Source: Patescibacteria group bacterium (GTDB lineage: Bacteria > Patescibacteriota > Microgenomatia > UBA10105 > UBA927). Taken from it: a DNA stretch of 53,515 nt. Below the pieces are notes generated by a model. It searched no databases and was not told the DNA's origin. It worked only from the letters and a program-made list of their open reading frames with translations. Of the stretch, positions 6,826 to 29,415 are shown piece by piece. Position 1 is the stretch's first letter, and every line of letters starts with the position of its first letter. The DNA lies in assembly GCA_038062895.1 (NCBI GenBank), contig JBBTWJ010000003.1, positions 186,254-239,768 on the forward strand. The letters run 5' to 3'. The position numbers and the translations under genes are program-made.

Positions 6826-6976
6826 ACCAGGTAGTGAAAACTCGACTGATCGATCATGCGATCAAACAAAATTTTCACTTATGATTCAATCTATGCCTTC
6901 AATAATAGAAACTCAATAAAATTATATCCTGATTATCGACTGAAAAATTTTGTGTCGAGTTTCTACTACCTGGCAT
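6826..6976 (-). mobile_element. family D inverted-repeat (MITE-like) element, subfamily a (TIR ..GTAGTGAAAACTCGAC / GTCGAGTTTCTACTAC..)
   Basis: ~22-bp TIRs. The sense-strand 3' end runs CCTGGT-ATG into the infA start. Paralog at 14892-15045. Confidence 0.7.
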
Positions 6977-7107
6977 ACCAGGTAGTAGATTTTCGATATC
7001 TCTTCGAGATGATGGTTACCCAATCCTACAAAAAATACCGATACTACTCTTTGCCGGATAGATTACCAATCGCATCGGCGATTGATCGAAAATTCACTAC
7101 CTGGCAT
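6977..7107 (-). mobile_element. family D element, subfamily b (TIR ..GTAGTAGATTTTCGAT / ATCGAAAATTCACTAC..), tandem to the previous copy
   Basis: Shares the CAT at 6974-6976 with the neighbouring copy. Paralog at 26133-26263. Confidence 0.7.
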
Positions 7108-7140
7108 AAACAACAAAAATTCCCCATCACGCCCATGGGG
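7108..7140 (-). terminator. candidate intrinsic terminator after map
   Basis: Minus strand reads CCCCAT-GGGCGTG-ATGGGG followed by AATTTTTGTTGTTT. Confidence 0.4.
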
Positions 7141-7221
7141 CTTAAAAATAACAATTTAGCAAACCGAAAATTAACAAAACGACGTGAACAACACGTAGTA
7201 TATCTTATTAAGTAGCCTTGG

Positions 7222-8037
7222 TCAACCCTTCGATAAACTCAGGGTTGACGCTGAATTTATTGAATGCGTCAACACCTGAGGCTCTCCATCCGTGATGAGG
7301 ATACTGTGCTCAAAAACGGCGGAAAGCGAGCCGTCCCTCGTCGCGATAGACCAGCCATCATCATTGACGTAAACTACCGCACCGCGACCTCTTGCATAAA
7401 TCACCTCTACGGCTATCGTCATACCCGGGACGAGCAATGGTGTCACGGCAATAGGAACTTTGACAAATCCGGGAATCTGCGGTTCTTCGTGTAACTCCCG
7501 ACCCACGCCATGACCAACAAGCGTTTTGACGATACCATACCCCGCGCCTTCCACAATTTTTTGAACCGCTTGCGAAATATGCCCGACGCGGTTTCCGGCT
7601 TTGGCTTGAGCGATCCCTTGCCACATGGCGTCTTCCCCTACCCGTAAAAATTCTTCCTTCTCATCACTTTTCCAGCCAGAGGCTGGTCCGCCTTTGGCGG
7701 AGACTACTTTCGTCCATGCCGTATCGGTATGGAATCCCTCATAGAGTAACCCAACATCGATCGTCAATACATCACCTTCTTTGAGTACATACTTCGTTGG
7801 GATCCCGTGAACGACCACATCGTTGACACACAGACACGTCGCCCATTTATATCCCTCCACCGTACGAAATGAAGCTGTCCCACCCGATTTCCGAATCAGC
7901 TCGTCGGCATGAGCTTCGATATCCAGAAGCGAAACACCCGGCTGAGCTTTCTCAAGAAGTTGATTCAAGATGGTCCCAAGCTTGGCTCCTCCCACACGCA
8001 TTGATTGTATTTCGGAAGGAGTTTTAGGAGTAATCAT
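7222..8037 (-). CDS. map: type I methionine aminopeptidase
   Basis: Pita-bread fold motifs (..DVGL.Y.G.H.D...T..VG, HGVGRELHE.P). Synteny. Confidence 0.93.
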   Translation of the reverse strand: MITPKTPSEIQSMRVGGAKLGTILNQLLEKAQPGVSLLDIEAHADELIRKSGGTASFRTVEGYKWATCLCVNDVVVHGIPTKYVLKEGDVLTIDVGLLYEGFHTDTAWTKVVSAKGGPASGWKSDEKEEFLRVGEDAMWQGIAQAKAGNRVGHISQAVQKIVEGAGYGIVKTLVGHGVGRELHEEPQIPGFVKVPIAVTPLLVPGMTIAVEVIYARGRGAVVYVNDDGWSIATRDGSLSAVFEHSILITDGEPQVLTHSINSASTLSLSKG

Positions 8038-8075
8038 AAAGGATTTTACAGGAATTTAGAGGAATTTAGGATATG
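8038..8075. repeat. period-10 word repeat, family H (GGATTTTACA GGAATTTAGA GGAATTTAGG)
   Basis: Three exact 10-nt registers. Related copy at 26974-27011 and an in-CDS copy at 19398-19447. Confidence 0.65.
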
Positions 8076-8765
8076 TTAAAGCAGATTTCGCTTTATAAGC
8101 TCCTCTTTAATTCGTGCGACAACATCTTCTTGATTCATACCCGTTGTATCCAATTCCCATGCGTCAGGAAGTTTTTGCAGTGGATCGGTGACGCGGGTTG
8201 TATCTTGATGATCACGTAGTTTTGTGTCTGACAAAACCTCTTCATGAGTTTTCTTTATCCCTTTTGCATCAAATTGTAGCCATCTTCGATGAGCCCGTTC
8301 CTCAAGGGAAGCAGTAAGATAAATTTTAAGTTGCGCGTTGGGGAGTACCCGCAAACCAATATCCCGCCCCTCCATAACCACCGATTTTCCATGAGCCATA
8401 TCCTGTTGACGGGCAACCATCCACTGGCGAACCTGGGGTATCGTGCCAACGTCTGAGGAACCGATCGCAACATCCTGTTTGAAAATCCTCTCAGTCACAT
8501 CTGAATCATTTAATACTGCGACAAATGGATGAATGCTCGTACTGGAAGGAGGCATAAGCGAAATAATAATTTGTTGGAGTTTTTTACAAACAGAGTCAAT
8601 ATCTTTTGTGGAAATTCCCGCTTCAATACAGGCTAATGCGAGCATCCTATACATCGCACCGGTATAAATATAGGTAAGCTGAAGTTCTTTTGCGAGTCTT
8701 CCGGCGATGTCCCCTTTTCCTGATGCAACCGGCCCATCAATGGCAATTTGAAGTGGGGTGTTCAT
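8076..8765 (-). CDS. cmk: cytidylate kinase
   Basis: IAIDGPVASGKG P-loop and CMP-kinase layout. Start chosen at MNTPLQ (8765), though the ORF extends to 8795. Confidence 0.85.
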   Translation of the reverse strand: MNTPLQIAIDGPVASGKGDIAGRLAKELQLTYIYTGAMYRMLALACIEAGISTKDIDSVCKKLQQIIISLMPPSSTSIHPFVAVLNDSDVTERIFKQDVAIGSSDVGTIPQVRQWMVARQQDMAHGKSVVMEGRDIGLRVLPNAQLKIYLTASLEERAHRRWLQFDAKGIKKTHEEVLSDTKLRDHQDTTRVTDPLQKLPDAWELDTTGMNQEDVVARIKEELIKRNLL

Positions 8766-8801
8766 AAATAATATGTACCAAAATAAATCCGACAATAAAA
8801 A

Positions 8802-8840: not shown

Positions 8841-9416
8841 TTATGAAACGTGGGCCATGATGGCCTTGTGTACATCCTCCACCGACTGATCCGCATTTAC
8901 TTCTATAAGCACGCCCTTTTGACGATAAAATTCCAGAACACTTTTCTCACTTTCTTTGTAGAGGGCGAGACGCGACTTAATCCTCTCCGGCGAATCATGA
9001 AGCTCGCTCGACCCCGGATGGAGAGGGCGCGCCCGCTTGAAGAGACGCTTGTATGATTCTTCCTCCGACAGATGAAGATAAAATACCCGCTCGACTTTAT
9101 ACCCATACTTGTCTATCTTGTCATCCAAAAACTTCGCCTGCTCGATATTCCTCGGAAATCCATCCATGATCCAATTCTTTCGAGCGTCCGGCCTTTTGAG
9201 ACGCCGCTTCCAAAGCACAAACATCTCGCTATCCGGCACGTACTTGCCGGTTATTAATATGTCTCGACACACATCTCCGATCATACCTTTATCCGTCGCT
9301 GCGGTCTCCCGCACCAGATCGCCTGATGTCAAAATCGGGAGACCTAACTTTTCTGCTAATAACTTCGCCTGCGTCCCTTTGCCTGATCCTTCCGGACCGT
9401 AGAAAACGATATGCAT
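8841..9416 (-). CDS. adk: adenylate kinase
   Basis: GPEGSGKGTQ P-loop. Follows secY. Confidence 0.93.
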   Translation of the reverse strand: MHIVFYGPEGSGKGTQAKLLAEKLGLPILTSGDLVRETAATDKGMIGDVCRDILITGKYVPDSEMFVLWKRRLKRPDARKNWIMDGFPRNIEQAKFLDDKIDKYGYKVERVFYLHLSEEESYKRLFKRARPLHPGSSELHDSPERIKSRLALYKESEKSVLEFYRQKGVLIEVNADQSVEDVHKAIMAHVS

Positions 9417-9561
9417 ACCAGGTAGTGAAATTTCGACCTTTGCTCTTTACGCTTTTGGGAAATCTCAATTTCCTTTCTTTATAATAGGACAACCTTAAAA
9501 CCAGGCGACTCTACGACAACGAGCAAAGTCAAAAGCGTGTCGAAATTCTACTACCTGGCAT
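9417..9561 (-). mobile_element. family D element, subfamily c (TIR ..GTAGTGAAATTTCGAC / GTCGAAATTCTACTAC..)
   Basis: Ends on the adk ATG. Its 5' ATG lies 8 nt after the secY stop. Paralog at 29270-29415. Confidence 0.7.
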
Positions 9562-9569
9562 AAACTCCA

Positions 9570-10859
9570 TCACTCCTTCAGGAATCCATCATAATTTCTC
9601 ATCACGAGCTGGGCTTCGAGTGCTTTGACCGTTTCCAAAACCACCGATACGACGATCAGGACGCTCGTCCCGCCGACCAATAATGTAGAAACACCGGTCG
9701 CCCCACCCGCAAGGGTAGGCAGGATGGCAATAGCACCTAAAAATAGCGCACCTGCAAGCGTAATCCGGGTCAGGATATAGTTGAGGTACGCGGCGGTGGG
9801 GCTTCCGGGACGGATACCGGGAATAAAGCCGCCGTATTTCTGTATTTCCCCGGCGATTTTCGTCGGGTTAAACGTAATCGCCGTATAAAAATAGGTAAAT
9901 CCGATCACCAAAAGAAAATAAATTATATTATAAGAAATGCTATTCGGATTAAATACTCCGGTGAGAAACCGTCCGATATTGACGAGTATCGGTTCCTTCA
10001 CTTGTTGGAGAAACCCTCCGACGAGAGAGGGCAAGAGCACAAGCGACACGGCAAAGATAATGGGAATCACTCCCGCTTGATTTACCCGAAGGGGAAGATA
10101 GGATGTCGATCCTCCGTAGACTTTATTGCCGCGGATCCGGCGCGCGTAGTGAACCGTAATCCTGCGTACCGCTTCATTCACCGTAACCGTCGCGGCAATA
10201 ACCCCTACGGCAAGTCCCAAAAATACCACCATGTTGCCGGCAACTTCTGCCGTCACCGTTGAAATCGTCTGTCCGATCACCACGGGAAATCTGCCCACGA
10301 TACCGGCGAATATGAGCAGTGATATACCATTCCCGACGCCATAGGCGGTAATAAGCTCCCCCAACCACATGACCACAACCGTCCCTGCCGTCATCGTCAG
10401 AATAAGAGAGATAAGGGTGAGTGGATCGGCTGCGCTGACAATCCCCTGGTTTTTGAGTAGCGCGTACATACCGATGGCCTGCAACGCGGCAAGCGGCACA
10501 GTAATCATGCGGGTGTATTGGTTGATTTTTTCCCGTCCATACTCCCCTTCTTTGGATAATTCTTCGAGTTTAGGAAATACAATGGTAAGAAGTTGCAGAA
10601 TAATAGAAGCGTTTATATAGGGGTTGAGCCCCAAAGCCATGACCGAAAAATTAACAAGTGTCCCTCCCGAAAAAATGTCCAGAAGTCCCAAAAATTGATT
10701 CTGGGCGAAAAGAGAAGCTAATTTCGCCGTGTTTACACCGGGAATGGGAATATGGGCGAAAAGCCGAAATACGATGAAAAGAAAAGCGGTGATAAGAATT
10801 TTCCGGCGAAGTTCCGGCACTTTCCAACTGTTGAGTATAGGCGAAATGAGATTGTTCAT
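9570..10859 (-). CDS. secY: preprotein translocase subunit SecY
   Basis: 429 aa, ~10 TM segments, conserved SecY N-terminal motifs. ATGA overlap with rplO. Confidence 0.95.
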
Positions 10860-11284
10860 TCTACCGAACCGCCAGCTTTGAGAATCGCTTTCTTGGCCGT
10901 GGCACTACAGGGCACCTTGACCGTCAACGTCACGGATACTTCCCCACCATCCAAAAGCTTTACTCTCGCAACACGCTCATCTATCATATGATATTTCTTC
11001 AATGTTTCCAATGTCACAACGGTGCCCTTGGGGAGAGCATTCAGATTGGTCACCGGAAGAGGAAATGCTTTGGGTTTTTGAGATTGGTTACGACCTTTTC
11101 CCCGAAGATACGGCAGCCTCTTGGTGATGGGCGACTGGCCACCCTCAAAACCCCGGGGCATACTCCCTCGGGCTTTTTGGCCCTTCGTACCACGACCGGA
11201 TGTTTTATTTTTGCCGGAGCCGTGACCGCGACCGATGCGTTTCTTCGGCCGTCTTATAAGAGTTGGTAAATGCGTAAGATCCAT
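10856..11284 (-). CDS. rplO: 50S ribosomal protein L15
   Basis: [25 protein letters not shown] motif. Confidence 0.95.
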
Positions 11285-11305
11285 ATCAATAAATACGTAT
11301 ACGTC

Positions 11306-11776
11306 CTATTTGACTTTTATAATTTTTAATTGCTTTAGAGCTTCCATCGTGGCGTACACGTTGGATGCTTGATTTTTGCTCCCAAGAATCTTCGACGATA
11401 TATCACGAATACCCGCCGCTTCCACGACCGCCCGTACTGCTCCGCCTGCGATGACTCCGGTACCCGGAGGAGCAGGCTTCAGGAGAATTTTGGCTGCACC
11501 GCGCTTGACATATACCTGGTGCGGTATGGTCCGGCCACGCATCGCAACCACAATTTGATGCTTTTTGGCATAACTCACGGCTTTTTTGACACCAGAGGAA
11601 ACATCCGGCGCCTGCCCGAGTCCCACGCCAACCCGGCCTTTTTTATCTCCGACGACCACGAGAACCGAAAATCCGACTTTATTGCCGCCTTTGGTTTTCT
11701 TGGAAACACGGTTAACCTGTACGACTTTTTCGGCAAATTCTGATGTACGCGGATCTGATCGTTGTTGGTATTTCAT
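11306..11776 (-). CDS. rpsE: 30S ribosomal protein S5
   Basis: V.RV.K..KGG....F..LVVVGD..G.VG.G.G.A S5 dsRBD motif. Confidence 0.95.
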   Translation of the reverse strand: MKYQQRSDPRTSEFAEKVVQVNRVSKKTKGGNKVGFSVLVVVGDKKGRVGVGLGQAPDVSSGVKKAVSYAKKHQIVVAMRGRTIPHQVYVKRGAAKILLKPAPPGTGVIAGGAVRAVVEAAGIRDISSKILGSKNQASNVYATMEALKQLKIIKVK

Positions 11777-11923
11777 ACCGGGTAGTAGAACTTCGATGTT
11801 CCTAACGGAACGTAAGCTCCCCTTTCTTTGTAATATTATTTTGCATTCTCATACTTTCCTCTTTCTTGCCAGAAGTCCTCAACACATGCGTTTACGCATG
11901 ATCGAAGTTTCACTACCCGGCAT
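11777..11923 (-). mobile_element. family D element, subfamily e (TIR CCGGGTAGTAGAACTTCGAT / ATCGAAGTTTCACTACCCGG)
   Basis: Compensatory CCAGG/CCTGG to CCGGG/CCCGG change in both arms. Ends on the rpsE ATG. Its 5' ATG lies 1 nt after the rplR stop. Confidence 0.7.
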
Positions 11924-11924
11924 A

Positions 11925-13308: not shown

Positions 13309-13494
13309 TTACCACGACGCCTTCACGACGCCGGGTAATTCTCCTTTATGTGCTAACTCCCGAAAACACAACCGGCAAATACCAAACTGCCGCATAAATG
13401 CACGGTTTCTTCCGCACAGTCCACAGCGATTTTTATGCCGAACAGCAAATTTTTGTTTATGATCAAATTTAACGACATCCGATGTTTTTGCCAT
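13309..13494 (-). CDS. rpsN: 30S ribosomal protein S14 type Z (zinc-binding)
   Basis: 61 aa with CGLCGR...CRLCFRE. Confidence 0.94.
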
Positions 13495-13633
13495 ACCAGG
13501 TAGTAGATTTTCGCTATTTCTTACGAAATATAAAAACCATGTTCCTTTCTATCAATCATATTTGTTAGTATTTCCAGATAGTTATCGTGTCCATTCCGCC
13601 ATGCGGAATGAGCGAAAATTCACTACCTGGCAT
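13495..13633 (-). mobile_element. family D element, subfamily d (TIR ..GTAGTAGATTTTCGCT / AGCGAAAATTCACTAC..)
   Basis: Ends on the rpsN ATG. Its 5' ATG lies 4 nt after the rplE stop. Paralog at 15520-15655. Confidence 0.7.
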
Positions 13634-13637
13634 AGTG

Positions 13638-14177
13638 TTACTTCTCAAACGGCATCCCCAAAAGCGTAAGGAGCTTTTTGGCATGCTCATCGTTGCCTGA
13701 TTTGGTCACAAAGGTCACCTCATATCCGCGCGTTTTATCAACCATAGTATAGTCAAGCTCCGGAAAAATGGTCTGATCGGCAATTCCCAATGTATAGTTG
13801 CCGTTTCCGTCAAAACCGGATCCCGATACACCCCGAAAATCCCGGACCCGGGGAAGAGCAATGGTCACGAGCCGGGTAAAAAAGTCCGACATGAGATGAC
13901 CCCGGAGGGTCACTTTGAGTCCGACGGTATCCCCCGCCCGCAGTTTGAACGATGAAATCGCTCTCTTGGCACGCGTAACGCTCGGCTTCTGACCGGTAAT
14001 AACGCTAAGCTGCGCAGATACTTTTTCAATGACTTTTTTGTCTGCAAGCGCCTCGCGGCCAATGCCACAGTTAACCACAATTTTGATCAAACGGGGAACG
14101 GCCATGAGATTGGCAATCCCAAGTTCTGTCATCAATTTTGGTCTGATTTCTTTGATATATTGTTCTTGTACGGTCAT
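13638..14177 (-). CDS. rplE: 50S ribosomal protein L5
   Basis: L5 core. Start trimmed to MTVQEQY (ATG 14177-14175), giving an ATGA overlap with the rplX stop. The ORF track extends to 14201. Confidence 0.92.
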   Translation of the reverse strand: MTVQEQYIKEIRPKLMTELGIANLMAVPRLIKIVVNCGIGREALADKKVIEKVSAQLSVITGQKPSVTRAKRAISSFKLRAGDTVGLKVTLRGHLMSDFFTRLVTIALPRVRDFRGVSGSGFDGNGNYTLGIADQTIFPELDYTMVDKTRGYEVTFVTKSGNDEHAKKLLTLLGMPFEK

Positions 14178-14891: not shown

Positions 14892-15045
14892 ACCAGGTAG
14901 TGAAAACTCGACTGCTCGCTTGAGCGAGCAAGCAAAATTTTCATTTGCTTAACTATACCATCTATATTTTTATGTTGGTCTATCATGTAATATTTAATCC
15001 TCAGTTACTTAAAAATTTTGTGTCGAGTTTCTACTACCTGGTCAT
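14892..15045 (-). mobile_element. family D element, subfamily a
   Basis: Same TIRs as 6826-6976. Ends on the rplN ATG. Its 5' ATG overlaps the rpsQ TGA as ATGA (15042-15045). Confidence 0.7.
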
Positions 15046-15519: not shown

Positions 15520-15655
15520 ACCAGGTAGTAGATTTTCGCTATTTTATGCAAAATAAAAAAACCTTATTCCTCTCTATCAATCTTTGATCGTATTCCCGGG
15601 TAGTCGTCTCGTGCGTCCCATTAAGTGGGACGAGCGAAAATTCACTACCTGGCAT
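15520..15655 (-). mobile_element. family D element, subfamily d
   Basis: Ends on the rpmC ATG. Its 5' ATG lies 1 nt after the rplP TGA. Confidence 0.7.
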
Positions 15656-15656
15656 A

Positions 15657-16797: not shown

Positions 16798-16877
16798 GGT
16801 TAAGAGATTAGCACGTGATGAAAAAGACATGATGAACACGTGATCATGTGCTCATCATGTGAACTTCTATCATGTGC
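16798..16877. repeat. word-hairpin, family C
   Basis: GATTAGCACGTGATGAAAAAGACATGATGAACACGTGATCATGTGCTCATCATGTG..ATCATGTGCTCATCC. Confidence 0.7.
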
Positions 16878-21119: not shown

Positions 21120-22307
21120 TTACGCTATAATCTTGGTGATCACTCCGGCGCCAACGGTGTGGCCGCCTTCGCGGATAGCAAACCGAAGACCTTCTTCAAG
21201 GGCGACCGGAACGATAAGTTTGGCCGTCATCTTCGTTGTGTCCCCAGGCATGACCATCTCTACTCCCGCCGGAAGCGTCACTTCGCCCGTCACGTCGGTC
21301 GTACGGATATAAAACTGCGGCCGATAGCCCGTGAAGAACGGTGTGTGCCGTCCACCTTCTTCTTTAGCGAGAATATAAATTTCCGCTTCAAATTCGGTAT
21401 GCGGCTTGACTGAACCGGGAGCAGCCAATACCTGTCCGCGCTCGACTTGGTCCTTCTCAACACCGCGCAGAAGAACCCCGATATTGTCGCCAGCCAATCC
21501 CTCGTCGAGAAGCTTGCGGAACATTTCTACTCCCGTGACCACGGTCGTTTGGGTCGCTTTCATACCCACGATCTCCATGGTGTCGTTGACCTTGGCTTTT
21601 CCGCGCTCGACGCGTCCGGTAACCACCGTGCCGCGGCCTTTGATGGAGAAAACATCCTCAACAGGCATAAGGAACGGCTTATCCAGCTCACGAATCGGGT
21701 CCGGTACGTAGGAATCAACCGTATCCATAAGCTCCTGAATTTGCTTCTCTGCCTCGGGATCACCCTGAAGCGCTTTGAGGGCACTTCCGCGGATAACCGG
21801 GACTTTGTCGCCAGGGAACTTGTACTTCGTGAGCAGTTCCCGGACTTCCATCTCAACGAGATCAAGAAGCTCTTTATCCTGCACCATGTCGCATTTGTTC
21901 ATAAATACGACGATAGCCGGTACGTTGACCTGTGCCGCGAGCAAAATGTGCTCACGGGTCTGGGGCATCGGACCGTCGGGCGCGGATACCACGAGGATAG
22001 CTCCGTCCATCTGGGCGGCTCCCGTAATCATATTTTTGATGTAATCGGCGTGTCCCGGCGCATCGATGTGCGCGTAATGACGCTTAACCGTCTCGTACTC
22101 TGAATGATGAATGTTAATCGTCACGCCTCGGGCGCGTTCCTCGGGAGCATTATCGATGTCTTCGTATTTGAGGGCTTTGGCCAACCCAAGCTTGGCTAAC
22201 ACGTGCGTGATAGCGGACGTCAAGGTGGTCTTACCATGATCGACGTGGCCAATGGTGCCAATATTCAAATGGGGCTTTTTGCGGTCAAATTTTTGCTGGT
22301 CTGCCAT
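21120..22307 (-). CDS. tuf: elongation factor Tu
   Basis: [19 protein letters not shown] GTPase motifs. 395 aa. Confidence 0.98.
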
Positions 22308-22392
22308 AGGTCCTCCTTAAAAATAAATACTACCAATACTACCAATCCGACAAATACTACCAATAATGAGAACTAAAATATTGTATCACACC

Positions 22393-24495
22393 TTAAACGC
22401 GATTGGCAATGATCTTTTCCTGAACATTCTTAGGAACCTCTTGATAGTGACTGGGTTCCATATAGTAGGTCGCTCTGCCTTTGCTCATGCTGCGCAAGGT
22501 CGTGGCATACCCGGCAAGCTCGGAAAGCGGCACCAGAGCCACGATAACCGTGACATGTCCCCGCTTGGTCGACCCCTGAATCTCGGCCCGTTTGGCGCCC
22601 AGATCGCCAATAACATCACCCATATATTCATCCGGTGTCGTAATCTCTACCTTCATGATAGGCTCCAAGAGTGTCGCGGCTCCCTGTTTCACCGCTGCCT
22701 GGATGGCCATGCTTCCGGCAATTTTAAATGCAATTTCACTGCTATCGACGTCATGATACGTACCGTCATAGAGCGTCACTGCTATATCCACAAGCGGATA
22801 TCCCGCGATCACTCCATTTTCCATGGCTTCTTTGACACCCTTTTCTATGGGTGAAATAAATTCCTTAGGAATTGCACCGCCTTTAATCTCGTCGATAAAC
22901 TCATTGCCTTCACCTCGACCCTTGGGCGCAATCCGCAGGAAACAATGTCCGTACTGCCCACGTCCACCGGATTGCTTGATATATTTCCCTTCGCCTTGGG
23001 CTTCCTTCGTGATCGTCTCTTTATACGCAACCTGGGGAGCCCCGACATTGGCTTCTACTTTGAACTCCCGCTTCATCCGGTCCACGAGAATCTCCAGATG
23101 CAACTCTCCCATCCCCCAGATGATCGTCTGGTTGGTCTCGAGATTACTTTTGATCTTGAAGGTGGGATCTTCCTCCGATAAACGCTGGAGAGCAAAACCC
23201 ATCTTTTCCTGATCGTTTTTGGTCTTGGGTTCGATAGCCAAAGAAATGACGGGGTCGGGAAACGTAATCTTCTCGAGAATAATAGGGTTGTCTTCATCAC
23301 AGATGGTGTCTCCGGTGATGGTATCTTTAAACCCAACGACCGCGACGATCTCTCCGGCATAGGCTTCTTTAATCTCTTCGCGCTGATTGGCGTGCATAAG
23401 AAGGAGCCGTCCGACGCGCTCTTTGATCCCTTTGATCGGATTAAAGGTGTAGGAACCCGAGGTGAGTTTGCCGGAGTAAATACGCACGTACGTGAGTTTA
23501 CCGACATGGGGATCGATTTGAATTTTGAATGCAAGAGCGCAGAACGCCTCTTCATTGACACGCTTGCGCAGGACTTTCTCATTTGTCTTGGGATGAAGTC
23601 CGGTAACCGGCGGGAGATCCAAAGGCGACGGCAAGTAGTCAACAACCGCATCGAGAAGCGGTTGCACACCTTTGTTGCGCAGACTCGTACCACAATAAAT
23701 AGGCACTAACTTGTAGGCAATGACCGCGCGACGAAGCGCCGCTTTGAGCTCCTCAATGGTCGGCTCGGCGCCGGACAAAAACTTTTCGATGAGGACGTCA
23801 TCCGTCTCGGAAATGCGCTCAACCAATGCTTTTCGGCTAGCTTCGACTTCTTCAACTAAATCGGCAGGAATGGGAATCTCATCATATGTCGAACCTAAAT
23901 CGTCGCTCACCCAGACAAATGCTTTACGGGTGAGGAGATCAACGAACCCTTTGAACTCATGTTCCCGGCCAATCGGGACAACCATGACGGCCGTCCGGGC
24001 ACCCAAACGGTCTTCGATGGAAGCAATCGTGACCCGAAAATCTGCACCGATTTTGTCCATCTTATTGATGAAACAAATACGCGGCACATTGTACTTGTCT
24101 GCCTGATGCCAGACCGTCTCGGATTGACTCTGTACGCCTTCTTCGGCATCCAAAACGGTGATGCCGCCATCCAGAACACGGAGACTGCGCTCGACTTCTG
24201 CCGTGAAATCCACATGTCCGGGGGTATCAATGATATTGAAGCGATAGCCATTCCAAAAGGTGGTCGTGGCAGCCGACACGATCGTGATACCGCGCTCGCG
24301 CTCTTGGTCCATCCAGTCCATGACGGTCGTACCGAGATCGATATCGCCGATCTTATAGCTCCTACCGGTGTAATACAGGATACGCTCGGTGGTCGTTGTC
24401 TTACCGGCGTCGATGTGAGCGATAATACCAATGTTGCGGACTTTGTCCTGCGGCAAATCGCGATTTTCTGTCTTATGTACTTGAACTTGAGCCAT
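22393..24495 (-). CDS. fusA: elongation factor G
   Basis: [21 protein letters not shown] motifs. 700 aa. Confidence 0.98.
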
Positions 24496-24941: not shown

Positions 24942-26009
24942 TTACGGTATAACCGTAAATGATCCCGTATACATCCCCATGGAGCAAGCGTAGGCAAGCA
25001 GGCCGGTCTTCTTGGGCGTAAAAACAAGTTCTTCTTCCCCATTCACCGGTAAAATTTTGGAAATTCCTAAACCCGGGATGGTAAATGCGCGGGCGCAGCC
25101 ATTGGCTTGGTCGGAAATGAGTTTCAGTTTGACCGGAATCCCTGCTTTGACGGTTGTGCTGTCTGCCGTATACCCATTGCTTTTGACGGTGATCGTCACC
25201 CGCTGAAGCCCATCGTTTGCCACACCTGCAACCGAACCTGATTTTGCAAGGGCTAACTCATCAACGTTTGACGTCGCGGCTCTATATATATTCGTAAGTG
25301 TATAAAATGATCCCGTGAGTCCGATACCGCCGTTTATCGAATAGAGGGCAAACACAGCAACGACTGTGGCAGCAGCATAGGAAAACAATTTATTTTTCAG
25401 AAGCGTCATGAGGGCGGCTCCAAGAAAGAAAAAAATGGGACTGGTACCTAAAATAAATGACCCCATGACCGCTGCCCCAAGCCAAGGACTACCGCTGGCC
25501 ACTGCTACTGCCATCGTCGCCTGGGTGACCCCGCAGGGCATGAGAACGGTAAAAAATCCGAGCGCTAAGGGGGCAAAGGCAGATTCGTCACGGCTTACCC
25601 GGCGGAGAAGTTTAAATGCCCACCGGGGCGGGGATATCACAAAATAGCGGAATATCGGATGAAGATTGGCGATGCGTGCGGCTGTTACCAACATAAAAAG
25701 ACCGGCCCCAATCTGCACGAACCCCATGATCACGGGAGACAACACAAGCGTCGAACCAATCATGCCCAAAAGAAATCCAAGGATGGTGTGCGCGACCAGC
25801 TTAGCGCCAAGAAACATACCAATAGTGCGAAAACTCACTGATTTACTGCTTGAACCATCAATAAGCCCGGTTTCCGTCGTTTGAGATACGGAGGAAACGA
25901 GTAACCCGCCTTGCACCGCGAGACATGATATGCCTCCCGTGGTCAGTCCCGTCAAAAATGCCAGCCAAATCGTTTGCATAAAGTAATGCTGTTCATTGTA
26001 TACCATCAT
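24942..26009 (-). CDS. permease (DsbD_2/TauE-like, GGISCLAVQGG and MPCG motifs) fused to C-terminal cupredoxin-like domain, putative Cu handling or efflux
   Basis: Multi-TM N-terminal part. The C-terminus (..VKAGIPVKLKL....CARAF.IPG.....L..G......TP.K.G...YACSMGMY) resembles the cupredoxin-like domain seen next to copA genes. Start uncertain (26009, 25979 or ORF-track 26075); 26075 would overlap the divergent promoter. Confidence 0.7.
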   Translation of the reverse strand: MMVYNEQHYFMQTIWLAFLTGLTTGGISCLAVQGGLLVSSVSQTTETGLIDGSSSKSVSFRTIGMFLGAKLVAHTILGFLLGMIGSTLVLSPVIMGFVQIGAGLFMLVTAARIANLHPIFRYFVISPPRWAFKLLRRVSRDESAFAPLALGFFTVLMPCGVTQATMAVAVASGSPWLGAAVMGSFILGTSPIFFFLGAALMTLLKNKLFSYAAATVVAVFALYSINGGIGLTGSFYTLTNIYRAATSNVDELALAKSGSVAGVANDGLQRVTITVKSNGYTADSTTVKAGIPVKLKLISDQANGCARAFTIPGLGISKILPVNGEEELVFTPKKTGLLAYACSMGMYTGSFTVIP

Positions 26010-26068
26010 AATTACATAAGGCCACCCCTTGCAAACGCCAAGGGAGTGGCCTTTAACACAACACATAC

Positions 26069-26097
26069 TTGACACAATGCTCCCGTTTTGATATTTT
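26069..26097 (+). promoter_or_regulatory. sigma70-like promoter of the csoR-copA operon (TTGACA-N17-TATTTT)
   Basis: -35 at 26069-26074, 17-nt spacer, -10 at 26092-26097. Immediately followed by the operator. Confidence 0.55.
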
Positions 26098-26115
26098 ATC
26101 CCTATAGGGGGGATA
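26097..26115. promoter_or_regulatory. candidate CsoR operator TATCCCTATAGGGGGGATA
   Basis: GC-tract pseudo-palindrome (TATCCC..GGGATA) overlapping the -10/+1 region. Same architecture as the Bacillus copZA operator recalled as TACCCTACGGGGGTA. Confidence 0.55.
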
Positions 26116-26132
26116 AAAGAAAGTAGGGGAGT

Positions 26133-26263
26133 ATGCCAGGTAGTGAATTTTCGATCAATCGCCTCGCGATTGGATAACTACCCGGCGAATTAGAGGGTTA
26201 TCGATATTTTTTAGACCATAGGATCACCTATCTCGAAGAGATATCGAAAATCTACTACCTGGT
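26133..26263 (+). mobile_element. family D element, subfamily b, plus-strand orientation, in the csoR 5' UTR
   Basis: ATGCCAGGTAGTGAATTTTCGAT...ATCGAAAATCTACTACCTGGT-ATG(csoR). Its interior is similar to 6977-7107 read on the sense strand. Confidence 0.7.
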
Positions 26264-26545
26264 ATGCCAAAAGGAATGCCGAGAGATCAATCAATTGAAC
26301 GCACCATACTCCACCGTCTAAAAATCGCGCGTGGACATTTGGAAAAAGTCATTACCATGGTTGAGGAAGGCCACTACTGCATCGATGTGGTCCACCAATC
26401 CATGGCCATCCAGGCGGCGCTGCGGGAAGCGGATCATCTGATACTCAAAAATCATATGGAAACATGTGTGGCTGACTCGATCAGAAAAGGCGAAAGCCGC
26501 GAGGTGATAGATGAAGTGATGAAGATAATGGAGAAAAAAGGTTAG
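26264..26545 (+). CDS. csoR: CsoR/RcnR-family metal-sensing transcriptional repressor
   Basis: 93 aa, L.RLKRI.GH......M......C.D...Q.......L layout with Cys/His/Cys ligand positions (..YCIDV..Q, ..H.ETC). Confidence 0.88.
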   Translation: MPKGMPRDQSIERTILHRLKIARGHLEKVITMVEEGHYCIDVVHQSMAIQAALREADHLILKNHMETCVADSIRKGESREVIDEVMKIMEKKG

Positions 26546-26577
26546 TTGGTTAGTTCGTTACTTAGTTACTTTGTTAA

Positions 26578-26973
26578 TTGGTTAATTTGTACGAGAAAAT
26601 TATGGATAAAATTATTGTTACTATTACCGGACTTTTTTCAATGGCGGGAATATATTGGTTTTTCTTTGGGAAAAAGTCCCGCGAAACGGGATCCCGCTCC
26701 GCGGAAGAGGATGCAAAAGATTCCTGGACGATAACCGTGGATGGCGGATACAAACCGAATATCATTAGAATTCCTAAAGACAAACCGGCAACACTGACAT
26801 TCATCCGTAACGATGCCAATAGTTGTCTGGAGGAAGTCGTTTTTCCGGATTATAAAATAAAAAAATATCTTCCACTGAACAAAGAGGTGATCATTACGCT
26901 CCCCTCTCCACACAAAAAATCCGGATTCCATTGCGGGATGTCTATGTTCCAAGGAAGAATCGAAACAACGTAA
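26578..26973 (+). CDS. membrane-anchored cupredoxin-like domain protein
   Basis: N-terminal TM helix, then ITVDGGYKPN.I.IPKDKP..L.F.R.D...C......P.......LP........P.....G.HCGMSM. Start may be the internal MDKII. Confidence 0.7.
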   Translation: MVNLYEKIMDKIIVTITGLFSMAGIYWFFFGKKSRETGSRSAEEDAKDSWTITVDGGYKPNIIRIPKDKPATLTFIRNDANSCLEEVVFPDYKIKKYLPLNKEVIITLPSPHKKSGFHCGMSMFQGRIETT

Positions 26974-27011
26974 AGGAATTTAGAGGAGTTTAAAGGATTT
27001 TAGAGGAATTT
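26974..27011. repeat. period-10 word repeat, family H (GGAATTTAGA GGAGTTTAAA GGATTTTAGA GGAATTT), supplies the copA SD-like GAGGA
   Basis: Exact 10-nt phasing. Related to 8038-8075. Confidence 0.65.
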
Positions 27012-29273
27012 ATGCCCAATACAAAAATTTCTTTCCCTATCATCGGCATGCATTGCGCGAGTTGCGCGCGGCTCATCGAAAAAAAACTACAAAAAACACC
27101 GGGGGTGACGGATGCGATGGTCAATTACGGGAGCGAACAAGCGTCGGTCGAGTTTGATGAGACGTCCTGTTCTTTAGATGCAATCGGAAAAGCAGTAGAA
27201 GATATAGGGTATCAAGCGATACTCTCACCGAAAGAAAAATTCAGCGAAGCCGGATCTGGCCCCACCATGACACCAGATGAACTCAAAGAAGAAGCAAAAA
27301 AGAAAGAGCTCGTGGATTTAAAACGGAAGGTTATCATCTCCGGCATCTTGAGTGCATTGATTATGATTGGAAGCTTCCCGGAATGGTTTGGGATCTTCAT
27401 GTCGCCATACGTTCTGCTTCTGCTCACTATCCCCGTCCAATTCTGGGCAGGGTGGGGATTTTATCAAGCAACGTGGTCGGGACTCAAAAACCGAGCCGCC
27501 GGCATGGATACGCTCATCGCAATCGGCACGAGCGCTGCATTCGGATTTTCCGTTCTCACCACATTTTTTGAAATGCAACTGCGCGTTGCCGGATTTCCGA
27601 TCATTATGTATTACGACACAGCTGCCGTCATCATTGCGCTCATCCTCCTTGGCCGCTATCTGGAAGCGAAAGCCAAAGCACATACCAGTGACGCAATTAA
27701 AAAACTTCTGCATCTGCAGGCCAAAACCGCCCGCGTCGTCCGGGATGGACAAGAAGTCGATATACCTATTGAAGAAGTCAAAACGGGCGACACAATCCGC
27801 GTCCGACCGGGAGAAAAGATTCCCGTCGATGGAAAAATCTCTGACGGATCATCAAGCGTCGATGAGTCCATGGTGACGGGCGAGTCCATGCCGGTTGACA
27901 AAAAAATAGGCGATCCCGTCATTGGGGCGACCATCAATAAAACCGGTACGTTCCTGTTTTTGGCGACAAAAGTAGGAAGCGACACGATGCTGGCTCAAAT
28001 TGTCACGATGGTCGCCCAGGCACAAAGCTCGCGTGCGCCAATTGCCCGGCTTGCCGATGTCATCTCTTCTTACTTCGTACCCATCGTCCTCATGCTTGCC
28101 GCCGCGACCTTCGTCATATGGTACGACTTTGGCTCATTCGCTCAAGCATTTACCAATATGATCGCCGTCCTGATCATAGCGTGCCCCTGCGCGCTGGGGC
28201 TTGCGACCCCCACAGCTATCATGGTCGGAACCGGACGGGGTGCCGAACGCGGAATCCTCATCAAAGACGCCCAAGCTCTAGAGATTGCCCATAAAACAAA
28301 AGTCGCCGTCTTTGATAAAACCGGGACGCTTACCCGAGGAGAACCAAAAGTCACGGATGTAGTATTTGCGGATGCAATCAAAAATATCAATCAGATAAAA
28401 GCGGCAATTGCCGCCGTTGAGGCAAACTCTGAGCATCCGTTGTCCCGGGCCATCATTATGTCTGAAATTTTCAAAAGGGTAAACCTTAAAAGGGTACAGG
28501 ATTTAACCTTAAAAAACTTCTCCGCGATCGAGGGTTTCGGCGTCAAGGGAAACGTCAATGATCTCCCCATACTCGTCGGGAACAAAAAACTCATGGAGAG
28601 AGAAGGCGTGACGCACAGCGCAGAGTTGGATAAGAAAGCCGATGAATGGATGCATCAAGGTAAGACCCTCGCATACGTCTCTGTTAAAGAAAAAAACGTA
28701 GCTCTCATCGCTATCGCCGATACGATCAAAACTGAAGCCAAAGAAATGGTCTCATCCCTCAAAAAAATGGGGGTTGCTGTATGGATGATCACCGGGGACA
28801 ACGAAGTGACCGCCCGGGCAATAGCCAAACAAGCAGGGATTGATAACATCCTTGCCGGGGTATTGCCGCAGGAAAAAGCGGAAAAGATTAAAGCATTAAA
28901 AAGTGGCAATACCACTGTTGCGTTTGCAGGTGATGGAATTAATGACGCGCCAGCCTTGGCTGCAGCCGACGTCGGAATAGCGATGGGAACAGGCACCGAC
29001 GTGGCAATAGAATCAGCGGGTATTACTTTACTCAATAAAGATTTGAGAAGTGTCGTGACGGCCGTAAATCTCTCCCGCGTAACCCTGGGCGTCATCAAAC
29101 AAAATCTTTTCTGGGCATTTGGCTATAACGTCATCCTCATCCCCGTGGCCATGGGGGTGCTCTACCCCATCTGGGGATTGCTTCTCAATCCGGCTCTGGC
29201 CGCCTTTGCGATGGCGGCAAGCAGCATATCCGTTGTAGGAAATTCATTACGGTTGAAAGGAGTACACATATGA
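27012..29273 (+). CDS. copA: copper-translocating P1B-type ATPase
   Basis: N-terminal HMA GMHCASC, TGES, CPC ([13 protein letters not shown]), [15 protein letters not shown]. Confidence 0.96.
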
Positions 29274-29415
29274 CCAGGTAGTAGAATTTCGACACGCTTT
29301 TCACTTTGCCCGTGTCGTTTTGAGACTCCTGGGTTGCAGCAATTAAAATTTATAAAGAAAGGACGTTGAGATTTCGAAAAGCGTAAAGGCAAAGGTCGAA
29401 ATTTCACTACCTGGT
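29270..29415 (+). mobile_element. family D element, subfamily c, plus-strand orientation
   Basis: ATGACCAGGTAGTAGAATTTCGAC...TCGAAATTTCACTACCTGGT-ATG. Its 5' ATG overlaps the copA TGA (ATGA). The interior matches 9417-9561 read on the sense strand. Confidence 0.7.

Follow-up and report, generated by a model that had tools for sequence, protein, structure and literature searches.

Start-codon hairpin elements of CPR bacteria, probably ORF-less relatives of a longer element that carries a GIY-YIG nuclease

Introduction

The Correia/NEMIS elements of Neisseria, the ERIC/YPAL elements of enterobacteria, and the RUP elements of pneumococcus are 100-170 bp long, carry terminal inverted repeats (TIRs) and a short duplication, and occur in many copies within transcribed spacers beside genes, where they fold into long hairpins. 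The elements of CPR bacteria described here have all of these traits. Correia hairpins are, in addition, substrates of RNase III. However, Correia/NEMIS, ERIC/YPAL, and RUP elements duplicate TA or a similar sequence, lie in either orientation at variable distances from genes, and descend from insertion sequences of the DDE type, whereas the CPR elements lie on the start codon itself, have a fixed polarity, and have a partner with a GIY-YIG nuclease.

GIY-YIG homing endonuclease genes (e.g., I-TevI and T4 Seg) resemble the CPR elements in being selfish, in having a GIY-YIG nuclease as their only product, and in recurring at the same site in related genomes. Homing endonucleases possess DNA-binding domains and long targets, spread by being copied into the matching allele, and lack inverted repeats, a target duplication, and derivatives without the ORF (PMC1564403). 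In contrast, the CPR nuclease is a bare catalytic domain of the Slx1 branch, and its elements combine arms and 4-bp duplications with hundreds of unrelated target sites and with MITE relatives. Its top sequence and fold matches are stand-alone UPF0213 proteins (BH0048, EF2693, and E. coli YhbQ), which consist of an equally minimal domain of ~90 aa. Members of the UPF0213 family are viewed as vertically inherited proteins related to repair (PMC1564403), whereas the CPR subfamily is multi-copy and lies inside inverted repeats.

CPR rRNA genes contain insertions that carry GIY-YIG ORFs but belong to neither the group I nor the group II introns, and short ORF-less insertions (<200 bp) without an explanation have been reported as well (PMC11270868). 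Compared by description, these insertions come from the same organisms as our elements, and inverted repeats, duplications, and start-codon sites are not reported for them. Integron attC sites share with the CPR elements an imperfect hairpin structure in which paired boxes and an unpaired center are conserved and the interior varies; both kinds are intergenic and have the orientation of the adjacent genes. Unlike the CPR elements, attC sites require the IntI recombinase and an integron platform, and they lie at cassette 3' ends; neither the recombinase nor the platform was seen in the window (the whole 53,515-nt stretch of DNA analyzed here) or in the flanks fetched for related elements.

Results

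An earlier note on the window reported nine inverted-repeat copies, and all nine were located where it had placed them. Measured from CCNGG to CCNGG, they are 127-149 bp long with complementary 20-bp arms, and on the sense strand every copy reads TATG-(A)CCNGGTAGT-RR-A-NNN-TCG...CGA-NNN-T-YY-ACTACCNGG-TATG. Matches to CCAGGTAGT with at most one mismatch numbered 28 in the window, as compared to 5.8 +/- 2.5 expected and a maximum of 12 in 100 shuffles; of these, the arms of the nine copies account for 18 and internal arm copies for another three. Each 3' end abuts the start codon of a verified gene or, in a tandem pair, the next copy. The note had read the final ATG as the gene start, and ORFs whose Pfam identities agree with its assignments do begin at all eight sites. 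The copies (c1-c9), their flanking repeats, their target genes, and the internal copies of the 3' arm (M1) are as follows:

6607-6825, minus strand: infA ORF (Pfam eIF-1a/InfA), starting at the final ATG of c1
6827..6973, minus strand: c1, 147 bp, CCAGG..CCTGG, AG-first arms, adjoining infA; TATG at 6974-6977 (5', common to c2) and 6823-6826 (3', its ATG being the infA start)
6978..7104, minus strand: c2, 127 bp, GA-first arms, in tandem upstream of c1; TATG at 7105-7108 (5') and 6974-6977 (3')
8841-9416, minus strand: adk ORF (Pfam ADK), starting at the final ATG of c3
9418..9558, minus strand: c3, 141 bp, on the start codon of adk; flanking TATG 9559-9562 and 9414-9417, secY stop 8 nt upstream of the 5' ATG
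11306-11776, minus strand: rpsE ORF (Pfam S5), starting at the final ATG of c4
11778..11920, minus strand: c4, 143 bp, CCGGG..CCCGG arms, on the start codon of rpsE; flanking TATG 11921-11924 and 11774-11777, rplR stop 1 nt upstream of the 5' ATG
13309-13494, minus strand: rpsN ORF (Pfam S14), starting at the final ATG of c5
13496..13630, minus strand: c5, 135 bp, on the start codon of rpsN; flanking TATG 13631-13634 and 13492-13495
13574-13582, minus strand: M1 in c5, ACTATCTGG
14517-14891, minus strand: rplN ORF (Pfam L14), starting at the final ATG of c6
14893..15041, minus strand: c6, 149 bp, on the start codon of rplN; 5-bp TATGA at 15042-15046 and 14888-14892, the 5' copy retaining the rpsQ TGA stop
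15310-15519, minus strand: rpmC ORF (Pfam L29), starting at the final ATG of c7
15521..15652, minus strand: c7, 132 bp, on the start codon of rpmC; flanking TATG 15653-15656 and 15517-15520
15596-15604, minus strand: M1 in c7, ACTACCCGG
26136..26262, plus strand: c8, 127 bp, on the CsoR-type repressor start codon; flanking TATG 26132-26135 and 26263-26266
26177-26185, plus strand: M1 in c8
26264-26545, plus strand: CsoR-type repressor ORF (Pfam Trns_repr_metal), starting at the final ATG of c8
29274..29414, plus strand: c9, 141 bp, on the DUF1573 start codon; 5-bp TATGA at 29269-29273 and 29415-29419, the 5' copy retaining the TGA stop of the Cu-ATPase gene
29416-29913, plus strand: DUF1573 ORF (Pfam DUF1573), starting at the final ATG of c9

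The duplication of an ATG on both sides of each insert, as proposed earlier, is real, but its unit is longer. In all nine copies the base before the 5' ATG is a T, which makes the flanking repeat TATG in seven and TATGA in two, the latter being the copies in which an upstream TGA stop overlaps the ATG. The tandem pair likewise shares one flank, although this is TATG (6974-6977) rather than the ATG first described. Distances to the upstream stop codons had been given as 1, 1, 4, and 8 nt, with ATGA overlaps at 15042-15045 and 29270-29273, and we obtained the same values. When element ends were fixed at CCNGG in 122 copies of the family, the exact flanking repeat was 4 nt in 82, 5 nt in five, and 3 nt in eight, while re-pairing the flanks among copies gave a 4-nt repeat in only 27. 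Non-ATG repeats also occur, i.e., TATA (five copies), TTTA (two), CTTA, TAAG, CAAG, CTTT, and others. These flanks bear on whether a host tyrosine recombinase might act on the hairpins by site-specific recombination, with TATG as a shared crossover core (cf. integron attC and CTX-phage attP). The layout of conserved outer box, central unpaired pair, inner box, and variable interior would suit such a process, as would the strict polarity and non-palindromic core. Nevertheless, we hold it to be exceedingly improbable: many different flanking repeats exist within one element type, target loci number in the hundreds, and the only associated gene is a nuclease, with no associated recombinase.

Empty sites, which the earlier note had suggested looking for in relatives, were found in the syntenic locus L025, whose aligned blocks are 77-82% identical to the window in nucleotide sequence. 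A single (T/C)ATG stands there at rpsN, rpmC, and adk, so that three of the five window-occupied operon junctions covered by L025 are empty. The copies are therefore insertions, and ancestral leaders, considered as another reading of these sequences, were rejected on the basis of these three junctions. Different subfamilies occupy the rpsN start codon in the window (c5) and in L030, whose S14 is 89% identical. The rplN copy matches 152/154 positions at the same site in L025, an identity (98.7%) that co-assembly could have inflated. Tandem and nested copies are present in the family, and interiors are 80% identical within both the c2/c8 and the c3/c9 subfamilies.

The short element was detected at ≥111 loci in GTDB genomes, nearly all of them MAGs of CPR/Patescibacteria from several lineages. 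Among 123 non-redundant copies from many CPR genomes, collected with search patterns that demanded intact arms, an ATG opening an ORF of ≥50 aa directly follows the 3' arm in 91, in keeping with the association that the earlier note had asked to see tabulated. Of the TATG-flanked copies, 85/91 lie on a start codon or a tandem copy (binomial p = 1e-43 against a null of 25%, derived from unoccupied non-coding TATG sites; p = 6e-27 against a conservative null of 40%). Because the search patterns demanded intact arms, ascertainment is possible, and it may, together with selection, account for part of this specificity. No extended target motif beyond TATG was found, and about one quarter of the family lies on other gene-start features, such as the -10 box (TATA) or the Shine-Dalgarno site (GGAG/AGGA), or elsewhere. 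Genes downstream of the copies span 141 Pfam families.

Copies are co-oriented with the gene, as the earlier note had stated, but its argument was circular: neither the arms, being symmetric, nor the ATG flanks, which are themselves the duplication, can reveal an orientation. The sole terminal asymmetry is a GA or AG dinucleotide, which is mixed 5:4 in the window. Polarity is instead apparent from internal features and from the ORF of a longer relative (see below). M1 lies ~48 nt from the 5' end in 52/91 copies, as compared to 15 expected (p = 2e-18), whereas its mirror image is at chance level (4 vs. 5), and a GC hairpin beside an arm favors the 5' side by 32:8.

Since polarity follows transcription, the element might be mainly a functional RNA leader (e.g., a processing site, an mRNA stabilizer, or a translational switch) whose mobility is secondary or past. 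Pairing of the 20-bp helix is in fact near-perfect; at eight stem positions free of the search pattern, 20/984 cells are non-Watson-Crick despite many two-sided changes, and 122 of 123 copies have G.T plus A.C at arm positions 10 and 11. M1 and a second internal motif, M2, which matches the inner 3' arm (54 copies vs. ~25 expected), permit an alternative fold that frees the 3' arm, and the helix can be lengthened by the flanking UAUG pair on the sense strand. In addition, both RNase III and RNase J are kept by CPR bacteria (PMC12641178). However, evidence that selection acts on the RNA fold of the sense strand is weak or mixed. The sense strand has no folding advantage (sense vs. antisense MFE 49:41, p = 0.09), the GC hairpin beside the 5' arm (P2) has 7 G.U vs. 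15 A.C pairs, and G.U exceeds A.C in M1 in a manner compatible with AT-biased decay. Moreover, an Rfam search of the elements gave no match, the small ORF from the 5' ATG of short copies is not conserved in length or frame, the downstream genes share no common function and therefore form no riboswitch-like regulon, and the three empty L025 junctions again count against a leader, which we judge to be very improbable as the main role.

A longer autonomous element with the same TIRs, sought at the suggestion of the earlier note, does exist, but it encodes a minimal GIY-YIG nuclease and not a known transposase. Arms lie 262-292 nt apart at ≥120 metagenome loci, only one of which is a tandem MITE pair. 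These long elements are 304-328 bp in length, with arms and duplications as in the short copies (TATG in 38), and each of 87 non-redundant intact copies has a single ORF of 82-100 aa, which occupies the whole interior and encodes a predicted nuclease of the Slx1/UPF0213-like GIY-YIG type. The ORF matched Pfam GIY-YIG at E = 7.5e-17, its AlphaFold model (pLDDT 88.6) had UPF0213 BH0048 and Slx1 as top PDB folds, and Y6, R27, H31, E51, and R61-R62-E63 are invariant in the family. A protein search with the nuclease returned 736 clusters at E ≤ 1e-5. An unbiased arm scan gave arm-to-arm length classes of 61-68, ~125-150, 204, and 318 bp. In the Harrisonbacteria MAG MHJJ01, a 318-bp nuclease-bearing copy (L053) lies in tandem with a short copy, and two more loci (L023 and L041) have short copies. 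Locus L236 provides an example of a long element with its neighboring genes. No arm-flanked nuclease gene is present in the window, where the only member of the superfamily is:

44..298, plus strand: stand-alone GIY-YIG ORF, 84 aa, without arms, 32% identical to the arm-flanked nucleases

Judged from its sequence, this ORF is a possible trans-acting partner of the window copies, though the link is uncertain.

The nuclease ORF is on the strand of the target gene in 50 cases vs. 2. The spacer from arm to ATG is 6 nt in 52/87 long copies, and an open frame joins the 5' host ATG to the nuclease ORF in 34/52 (65%, p = 2e-6). The ORF always has its own ATG. Gene callers predict proteins beginning MPGSENS(T/I)AI-MFYYVY. 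The stop codon overlaps the 3' arm in 66/87 copies and lies 20-21 nt upstream of the regenerated host ATG in 45/56. We consider it probable that the window repeats are ORF-less, MITE-type members of a CPR family of very small mobile hairpin elements whose ~315-bp full-length form carries the GIY-YIG nuclease.

TIRs, a variable 4-5-bp duplication, precise empty sites, and tandem or nested copies are also the classic signatures of ordinary MITEs moved by a conventional transposase (e.g., a DDE enzyme with a 4-5-bp staggered cut), in which case the GIY-YIG ORF would be cargo or a secondary invader; to our knowledge, a GIY-YIG nuclease alone has no strand-transfer activity. However, neither a transposase, in agreement with the earlier note, nor a recombinase turned up in the window, and 0.8 Mb of flanks held no recurrent protein cluster except housekeeping-type genes. 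Furthermore, nearly all of the ≥120 arm pairs hold this ORF, intact or broken, and it fits the interior to the nucleotide, starting ~6 nt past one arm and stopping within the other, which is not expected of cargo. DDE insertion would also leave the strict polarity unexplained, and we regard a conventional transposase as rather unlikely.

The short copies might instead be leftovers of nuclease-bearing insertions that lost the gene, as in a homing-endonuclease cycle. Short and long copies do have arms, duplication, target, and polarity in common, and the ORF is already broken in ~10 of the ≥120 long elements. Gene loss nonetheless appears quite improbable, given that MITE interiors showed no residual similarity to the nuclease ORF above reversed-sequence controls at the DNA or protein level, that the P2 hairpin and M1 are common in short copies and absent from long ones, that lengths are discrete rather than a continuum, and that MITE subfamilies span unrelated sites and genomes (80% identity for c2/c8 and c3/c9; 85% for c9 and L028).

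Discussion

The core of the earlier reading was upheld, i.e., a mobile inverted-repeat element that targets start codons in a fixed orientation and falls outside the described REP/MITE families. No description of a start-codon hairpin family was found in the literature, and the family is apparently undescribed so far.

Insertion takes place at gene 5' ends, most often on a TATG start codon and with the polarity of the gene, and it duplicates 4 (sometimes 5) bp. In our working model, the nuclease would recognize the arm hairpin or cruciform, with its conserved central G.T/A.C pair, and cut at the hairpin base with a 4-nt stagger. We know of no GIY-YIG domain that can rejoin DNA, and integration would therefore need host repair or ligation, or a further partner. 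Short copies would probably be mobilized in trans by such a nuclease.

Insertion of a full-length element places the nuclease ORF directly behind the initiation signals of the host gene, which the element appears to exploit. The duplicated host ATG, seven arm codons, and the 6-nt spacer are usually in frame with the nuclease ATG and give the leader MPGSENSTAI. Since the nuclease stop lies so close to the regenerated host ATG, the host gene is probably translated by termination-reinitiation. Short copies, in turn, are probably tolerated in essential operons because the 20-bp terminal helix, with its almost perfect pairing, loops the insert out of the mRNA or is a target of RNase III cleavage; such folding or cutting would bring the upstream Shine-Dalgarno site or the 5' end beside the start codon.

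The nine copies in the window

The earlier note described nine short inverted-repeat copies (c1-c9), each ending on a start codon, and all nine were located exactly where it had placed them. The ATG at their 3' ends was the first codon of eight ORFs, bearing out the start-codon claim, and Pfam assigned these ORFs to InfA (eIF-1a), adenylate kinase, S5, S14, L14, and L29, with the remaining two being a CsoR-type repressor and a DUF1573 protein. The distances reported from the 5' ATG to the upstream stop codons were also correct, as was the single ATG shared by c1 and c2, the tandem pair upstream of infA. The flanking repeat had been read as ATG alone; the ATG was indeed repeated, but a T preceded the 5' ATG in 9/9 copies, making the repeat TATG. 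At c6 (on rplN) and c9 (on the DUF1573 gene) it was TATGA, the extra base keeping the upstream gene's overlapping TGA stop. In the window's own genome, Shine-Dalgarno (SD) sequences lay at normal spacing upstream of the 5' copy of the ATG.

In gene sense, each copy has the structure TATG-(A)CCNGGTAGT-RR-A-NNN-TCG ... CGA-NNN-T-YY-ACTACCNGG-TATG. The 9-mer CCAGGTAGT, allowing up to one mismatch, occurred 28 times in the window compared to 5.8 expected, with a maximum of 12 in 100 shuffles. The window was sampled from Hainich groundwater (0.1 um fraction), and since its ribosomal operon lacks rpmD, is syntenic with L025 (a locus fetched from another MAG), and shows 66-74% nucleotide identity to L030 (a locus of a Gottesmanbacteria MAG), the window organism belongs to the CPR.

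The short-copy family and its target duplication

In 185,579 species-representative genomes, we looked for pairs of arms, i.e., the complementary element ends bounded by CCNGG, separated by a gap of 85-115 nt. Results showed at least 111 stretches with the arms, nearly all in CPR/Patescibacteria MAGs; the lineages among the matches listed included Parcubacteria, Moran-, Gottesman-, Yanofsky-, Harrison-, and Portnoybacteria, and Hainich bins. A few element-bearing MAGs are labelled otherwise, among them CAYHFH01, clearly a relative of the window organism. Labels seen on element-bearing TPA MAGs include 'uncultured Gammaproteobacteria', 'Bdellovibrionales', and 'Spirochaetia' (L013, L025, L047, L055 (CAYHFH01), and others); such labels are unreliable, given that at least CAYHFH01 is closely related to the window organism and belongs to the CPR. 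A search of IMG/VR for carriage by viruses gave zero matches.

The short copies are 121-149 bp long and, among the matches listed, 91 of 123 non-redundant copies have an ATG directly after the 3' arm that begins an ORF of 50 aa or more. With CCNGG taken as the element ends, an exact flanking repeat of 4 nt was present in 82/122 listed copies, of 5 nt in 5/122, and of 3 nt in 8/122, and when flanks were re-paired among copies as a control, only 27 had a 4-nt repeat. Copies at sites other than ATG also have matching repeats (TATA, TTTA, CTTA, TAAG, CAAG, CTTT). The flanking repeat is a true target duplication. Its 3' member, which is the functional start codon, is better kept than the 5' member (e.g., CATG...TATG in ten copies). 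Four properties of a MITE, namely short length without coding capacity, terminal inverted repeats, a target duplication of fixed length, and presence/absence polymorphism, were found. Small ORFs opened by the 5' ATG of short copies were no longer than in a control frame, and constraint on them was rejected, as neither their length, their stop position, nor their frame with respect to the host ATG was conserved.

An HMM scan of 0.8 Mb of fetched loci also returned additional copies of the element, four 'mini' elements of 61-68 bp, in which two arms surround one small hairpin, and four solo arms, which may be remnants of partial deletions. Two solo arms stood directly before (T)ATG and an ORF, one such ORF being a csoR homologue. 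In L110 (1356-1504), one copy was nested in the hairpin loop of another.

Mini elements and solo arms in the fetched loci
L052 5631-5697, mini element
L084 4163-4230, mini element
L039 1867-1927, mini element
L094 1169-1231, mini element
L057 5048-5068, solo arm
L024 5607-5623, solo arm
L049 5458-5476, solo arm
L026 1076-1091, solo arm

Insertion versus ancestral leader

The copies could be ancestral leaders of the genes they precede, and the earlier note had looked to empty orthologous sites to decide the matter. L025 is syntenic with the window across the ribosomal-protein operon (aligned blocks 77-82% identical), and at its rpsN, rpmC, and adk junctions a single (T/C)ATG is present with no element. 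These three empty sites show that the window copies are insertions and not ancestral leaders. The copy at rplN is common to both operons and is identical at 152/154 positions, with flanks that diverge right up to the duplication, which suggests a recent acquisition at this shared site, with the caveat that the 98.7% identity may be inflated by co-assembly. At the rpsN start codon, L030 (S14 89% identical) holds a c3-like subfamily, in contrast to the c5 type of the window, and therefore the same start codon was hit independently. At the rplR-rpsE junction of L025 (2884-2976), the site occupied by c4 in the window, an unrelated 93-nt hairpin-like insert lies between the SD and TATG; several hairpin families seem to colonise gene junctions of CPR ribosomal operons.

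Start-codon targeting and polarity

Unoccupied TATG/CATA sites in the fetched loci comprised 375 start codons, 1,121 other non-coding sites, and 3,926 coding sites. Among listed TATG-flanked copies, 81/91 sat on a start codon and 4/91 on another copy, together 85/91, with binomial P = 1e-43 against a 25% null and P = 6e-27 against a 40% null. Most other copies were also within ~35 nt of a gene start. No extended motif beyond TATG separated occupied from unoccupied TATG start sites. Outside the window, a -10-like TAnnnT 4-9 nt upstream was commoner at occupied sites (41% vs. 21%) and an SD 4-mer was rarer (4% vs. 12%).

Copies flanked by TATA...TATA (L007, L017, L069, L081, L107) had a 3' junction reading TGGTATAAT or TGGTATACT, an extended -10 that lies 7-17 nt upstream of the start of leaderless-type genes. 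These observations suggest insertion into the -10 boxes of such genes, with the promoter rebuilt. An outward promoter within the 3' arm itself was rejected: its best hexamers by eye, TCTACT and TACTAC, lack key -10 positions, and TGGTATAAT is recreated by the TATA-flanked copies only.

Co-orientation of copy and gene had been argued from the ATG...ATG reading on the sense strand. Since the arms are symmetric, that reading is uninformative on orientation, and the sole asymmetry at the ends, where a GA or AG dinucleotide faces CT or TC, is a 5:4 mix in the window and 61:29 relative to genes in the family, so it was discarded as the orientation determinant. The claim itself stands on internal features. 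M1, an internal copy of the 3' arm (consensus ACTATCTGG), lies ~48 nt from the 5' end in 52/91 copies compared to 15 expected, while its mirror image is at chance level, and a GC-rich hairpin lies beside the 5' arm in preference to the 3' arm (32:8). The polarity of short copies is therefore real. The two plus-strand copies, c8 (on the CsoR-type gene) and c9, sit in a 13-kb plus-strand island with minus-strand ribosomal and rpoBC genes on either side, and GC skew tracks gene strand. Since c8 and c9 follow the genes of this island, polarity appears to track transcription and not replication; an orientation set by replication is unlikely when two copies follow the genes of a plus-strand island that is itself enclosed by a minus-strand region and the skew reports gene strand.

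Other features of the window's operons

A second, unrelated family of palindromic repeats (~75 nt, ATGAGCACATGAT...ATCACGTGCTAAT, with nested AGCACGTGAT/ATCATGTGCT inverted repeats) fills the ribosomal-operon spacers rpoA-rplQ, rpsD-rpoA, rplV-rpsC, and rpsJ-rplC. Three of its four copies end ~6-11 nt before the next start, and the rpsJ-rplC copy stops ~100 nt short of the rplC start. The str operon is broken into two parts ~15 kb apart, and the intervening stretch includes the 13-kb island of copper/redox genes (CsoR, Cu-ATPase, DsbD-type, thioredoxins, rhodanese, flavodoxin). As is usual for CPR, rpsE and rplO have no rpmD (L30) gene between them, and adk and map are separated by an inserted cytidylate kinase gene.

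Features of the window outside the element family
3691-3765, ~75-nt palindromic repeat
4703-4777, ~75-nt palindromic repeat
8076-8795, cytidylate kinase gene between adk and map
10856-11776, rpsE to rplO without rpmD
16807-16881, ~75-nt palindromic repeat
20338-20412, ~75-nt palindromic repeat
21120-24495 (-), fusA-tuf
24942-40051, stretch including the 13-kb plus-strand island
40283-41306 (-), rpsL-rpsG

Helix and RNA readings

The arms form a stem of exactly 20 bp. At the eight stem positions not fixed by the pattern, 964/984 cells were Watson-Crick, leaving 20 exceptions despite frequent two-sided changes (e.g., position 3: A-T 86, C-G 23, G-C 10). Positions 10 and 11 were G.T plus A.C in 122/123 copies, with the purines on the 5' arm. 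Such conservation could reflect selection on the fold of the sense RNA, but the case is weak, since minimum free energies of sense vs. antisense strands split 49:41 (not significant) and G.U vs. A.C counts were mixed. Rfam gave no match at gathering score and no relevant one at E <= 5, and ARAGORN returned nothing; with both empty and conservation confined to the arms, a self-splicing (group I/II) intron or a tRNA-like element was rejected. A riboswitch or regulon leader was likewise rejected, as the genes downstream of short copies span 141 Pfam families and are functionally unrelated. Complementarity of the arm to the 790-loop region of 16S rRNA was judged within chance for a 9-mer.

A long partner encoding a putative nuclease

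Scanning the 0.8 Mb of fetched loci with a single-arm HMM revealed, in L053 of a Harrisonbacteria MAG, a 318-bp element with the same arms, the whole interior of which is a 90-aa GIY-YIG ORF. It is in tandem with a short copy, and the same MAG has short-copy loci L023 and L041. A second scan, of metagenome contigs for arms 262-292 nt apart, gave at least 120 stretches, one of them a tandem MITE pair; among those listed, ~105 contained one 82-100-aa ORF and ~10 had that ORF broken. A longer element that shares the arms and duplications, as the earlier note had envisaged for a candidate autonomous partner, is present at no fewer than 120 loci; where a transposase had been expected, it encodes a putative GIY-YIG nuclease, an enzyme outside the known transposase classes. 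No conventional transposase was found within the window, and no recurrent non-housekeeping protein cluster emerged from 0.8 Mb of flanking sequence. The short copies did not arise by decay of long ones, as they retain no residual similarity to the nuclease ORF.

The matches listed included 87 non-redundant intact long copies of 304-328 bp. The nuclease ATG lay 6 nt (GCGATT) past the arm segment of 21 nt (20-bp arm and the base that follows) in 52/87, its stop shared 1-2 nt with the beginning of the 3' arm segment in 66/87, and among the listed copies this stop was 20-21 nt upstream of the host ATG in 45/56. The duplication was TATG in 38 of the 87, an ATG with an ORF of at least 50 aa immediately followed 46 of them, and the nuclease ORF and the target gene shared a strand at 50:2 among listed copies. 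The 5' ATG was in frame with, and open into, the nuclease ORF in 34/52 of the listed copies that have such an ATG, compared to the one third expected (P = 2e-6); translation from it yields the leader MPGSENSTAI, a frequent start of public gene predictions for the nuclease family. Locus L236 illustrates this order as TATG-arm-ORF-arm-TATG, with an HTH gene 20 nt past the nuclease stop. The two size classes share arms, duplication, target, and polarity, and in the long class the host start codon leads into the nuclease ORF, which stops 20 nt before the regenerated host start.

Other long-copy targets were GGA, AGGA, or GGAG within SD sites. A subgroup that duplicates TGGA (L124, L125, L133, L141, L144, L159, L161, L184, L191, L206, L218, L235) does so at a conserved site, ..TTAYTGGA/CCGGNTAA, which precedes the stop of a conserved host ORF by three codons; some of its nuclease ORFs read through the 3' arm to the host stop. 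No tRNA or rRNA was found as the target of TGGA-flanked long copies.

The nuclease consists of a GIY-YIG domain (PF01541, E = 7.5e-17) with invariant residues Y6, R27, H31, E51, and R61-R62-E63. In searches with its confident structural model (pLDDT 88.6), UPF0213 BH0048 and the structure-specific nuclease Slx1 ranked before UvrC and I-TevI; the long class encodes only this minimal Slx1-like nuclease. A protein search returned 736 clusters at E <= 1e-5 in Patescibacteria MAGs, bearing generic names only (e.g., 'GIY-YIG nuclease family protein', 'putative endonuclease', 'excinuclease ABC subunit C'). Prokaryotic stand-alone Slx1-like proteins exist and have been assumed to be repair enzymes (PMC1564403). 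An arm-less 84-aa GIY-YIG ORF lies at 44-298 (+) of the window, similar free-standing ORFs occur in L008, L059, L063, and L085, and small GIY-YIG genes are unusually frequent near elements (6 of ~112 loci).

Comparison with known systems

The window copies structurally fit the MITE definition, and their partner enzyme lies outside the known transposase classes. They differ from Correia/ERIC-type MITEs in target, polarity, and enzyme. Homing endonuclease genes of the GIY-YIG class share the catalytic domain and its conserved residues; however, those have an extra DNA-binding domain or a long target and spread only to cognate alleles, whereas the nuclease here is 82-100 aa of catalytic domain only, the shared target is 4 nt only, and the family has arms, duplications, many unrelated targets, and ORF-less derivatives. 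REP/REPIN systems with RAYT have an HUH (Y1) transposase gene between repeats and no target duplication, and were rejected since a duplication is present here and only a GIY-YIG gene was found between the arms among the matches listed. IS200/IS605 elements have subterminal hairpins, neither terminal inverted repeats nor duplication, and replication-tied orientation; the terminal 20-bp arms, the 4-bp duplication, and the way c8 and c9 follow their genes exclude that class. Integron attC sites depend on the IntI integrase, an attI platform, and R/L boxes with a GTT crossover, whereas neither the window nor the flanks yielded an integrase and the flanking repeats are variable. Closest among earlier observations are the GIY-YIG ORFs of CPR rRNA genes, which lie within non-intron insertions (PMC11270868), and the stand-alone Slx1-like proteins mentioned above. 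Literature searches turned up no account of the arms, the MITEs, or insertion at start codons.

Proposed mode of action and significance

In the working model, the nuclease would be translated off host initiation signals and the host gene then expressed by reinitiation. The enzyme may recognise the arm hairpin or cruciform and make 4-nt staggered cuts, and short copies would be moved in trans. As a hypothesis, directional joining through a non-palindromic 4-nt overhang would account for the polarity of copies that have no ORF. Either the helix of a short copy or RNase III could keep upstream signals functionally adjacent to the start codon, and this would explain the intact helix in each copy; CPR retain RNase III (PMC12641178).

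We tentatively propose, at a little under an even chance, a new class of prokaryotic transposable element, the smallest autonomous one (~315 bp), the only protein of which, a bare Slx1-like GIY-YIG nuclease, would recognise the element's own hairpin/cruciform and make staggered 4-nt cuts that render insertion directional. As a 'start-codon parasite', it would be translated off host signals through an arm-encoded leader, return the ribosome 20 nt past its stop, and place ORF-less derivatives even in the ribosomal-protein operon. The family rates as a new kind of mobile element, and its mechanism of mobility is a proposal from sequence. To our knowledge, ~315 bp would be the smallest size of any autonomous prokaryotic transposable element, and all known prokaryotic transposon classes use a DDE/DEDD, HUH, serine or tyrosine recombinase, or Cas1.

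The elements also bear on annotation. A spurious 119-aa ORF was predicted over the tandem c1/c2 (window 6856-7215, +) and infA was uncalled in one assembly of the same sequence (L002, around 14035-14253); therefore, the elements corrupt automatic annotation, giving spurious ORFs and missed real genes in CPR, and they inflate 'GIY-YIG nuclease' and 'excinuclease' counts. They may account for some unexplained short insertions in CPR rRNA genes (PMC11270868). For hard-to-culture organisms, they are natural material with which leaderless-type initiation, reinitiation, and translation over a 20-bp helix could be studied. As a tool, a tiny nuclease that is putatively guided by structure and has a defined hairpin partner could also be of interest.

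If the proposal is true, an inverted-repeat, duplicating, MITE-spawning element with only a ~90-aa GIY-YIG domain would be an added transposon class and would push down the minimum size of autonomous mobile DNA. Its strategy, to occupy a start codon, exploit the host gene's expression signals, and regenerate the start codon behind it, would bear on the persistence of selfish DNA in genomes that have hardly any room to spare.
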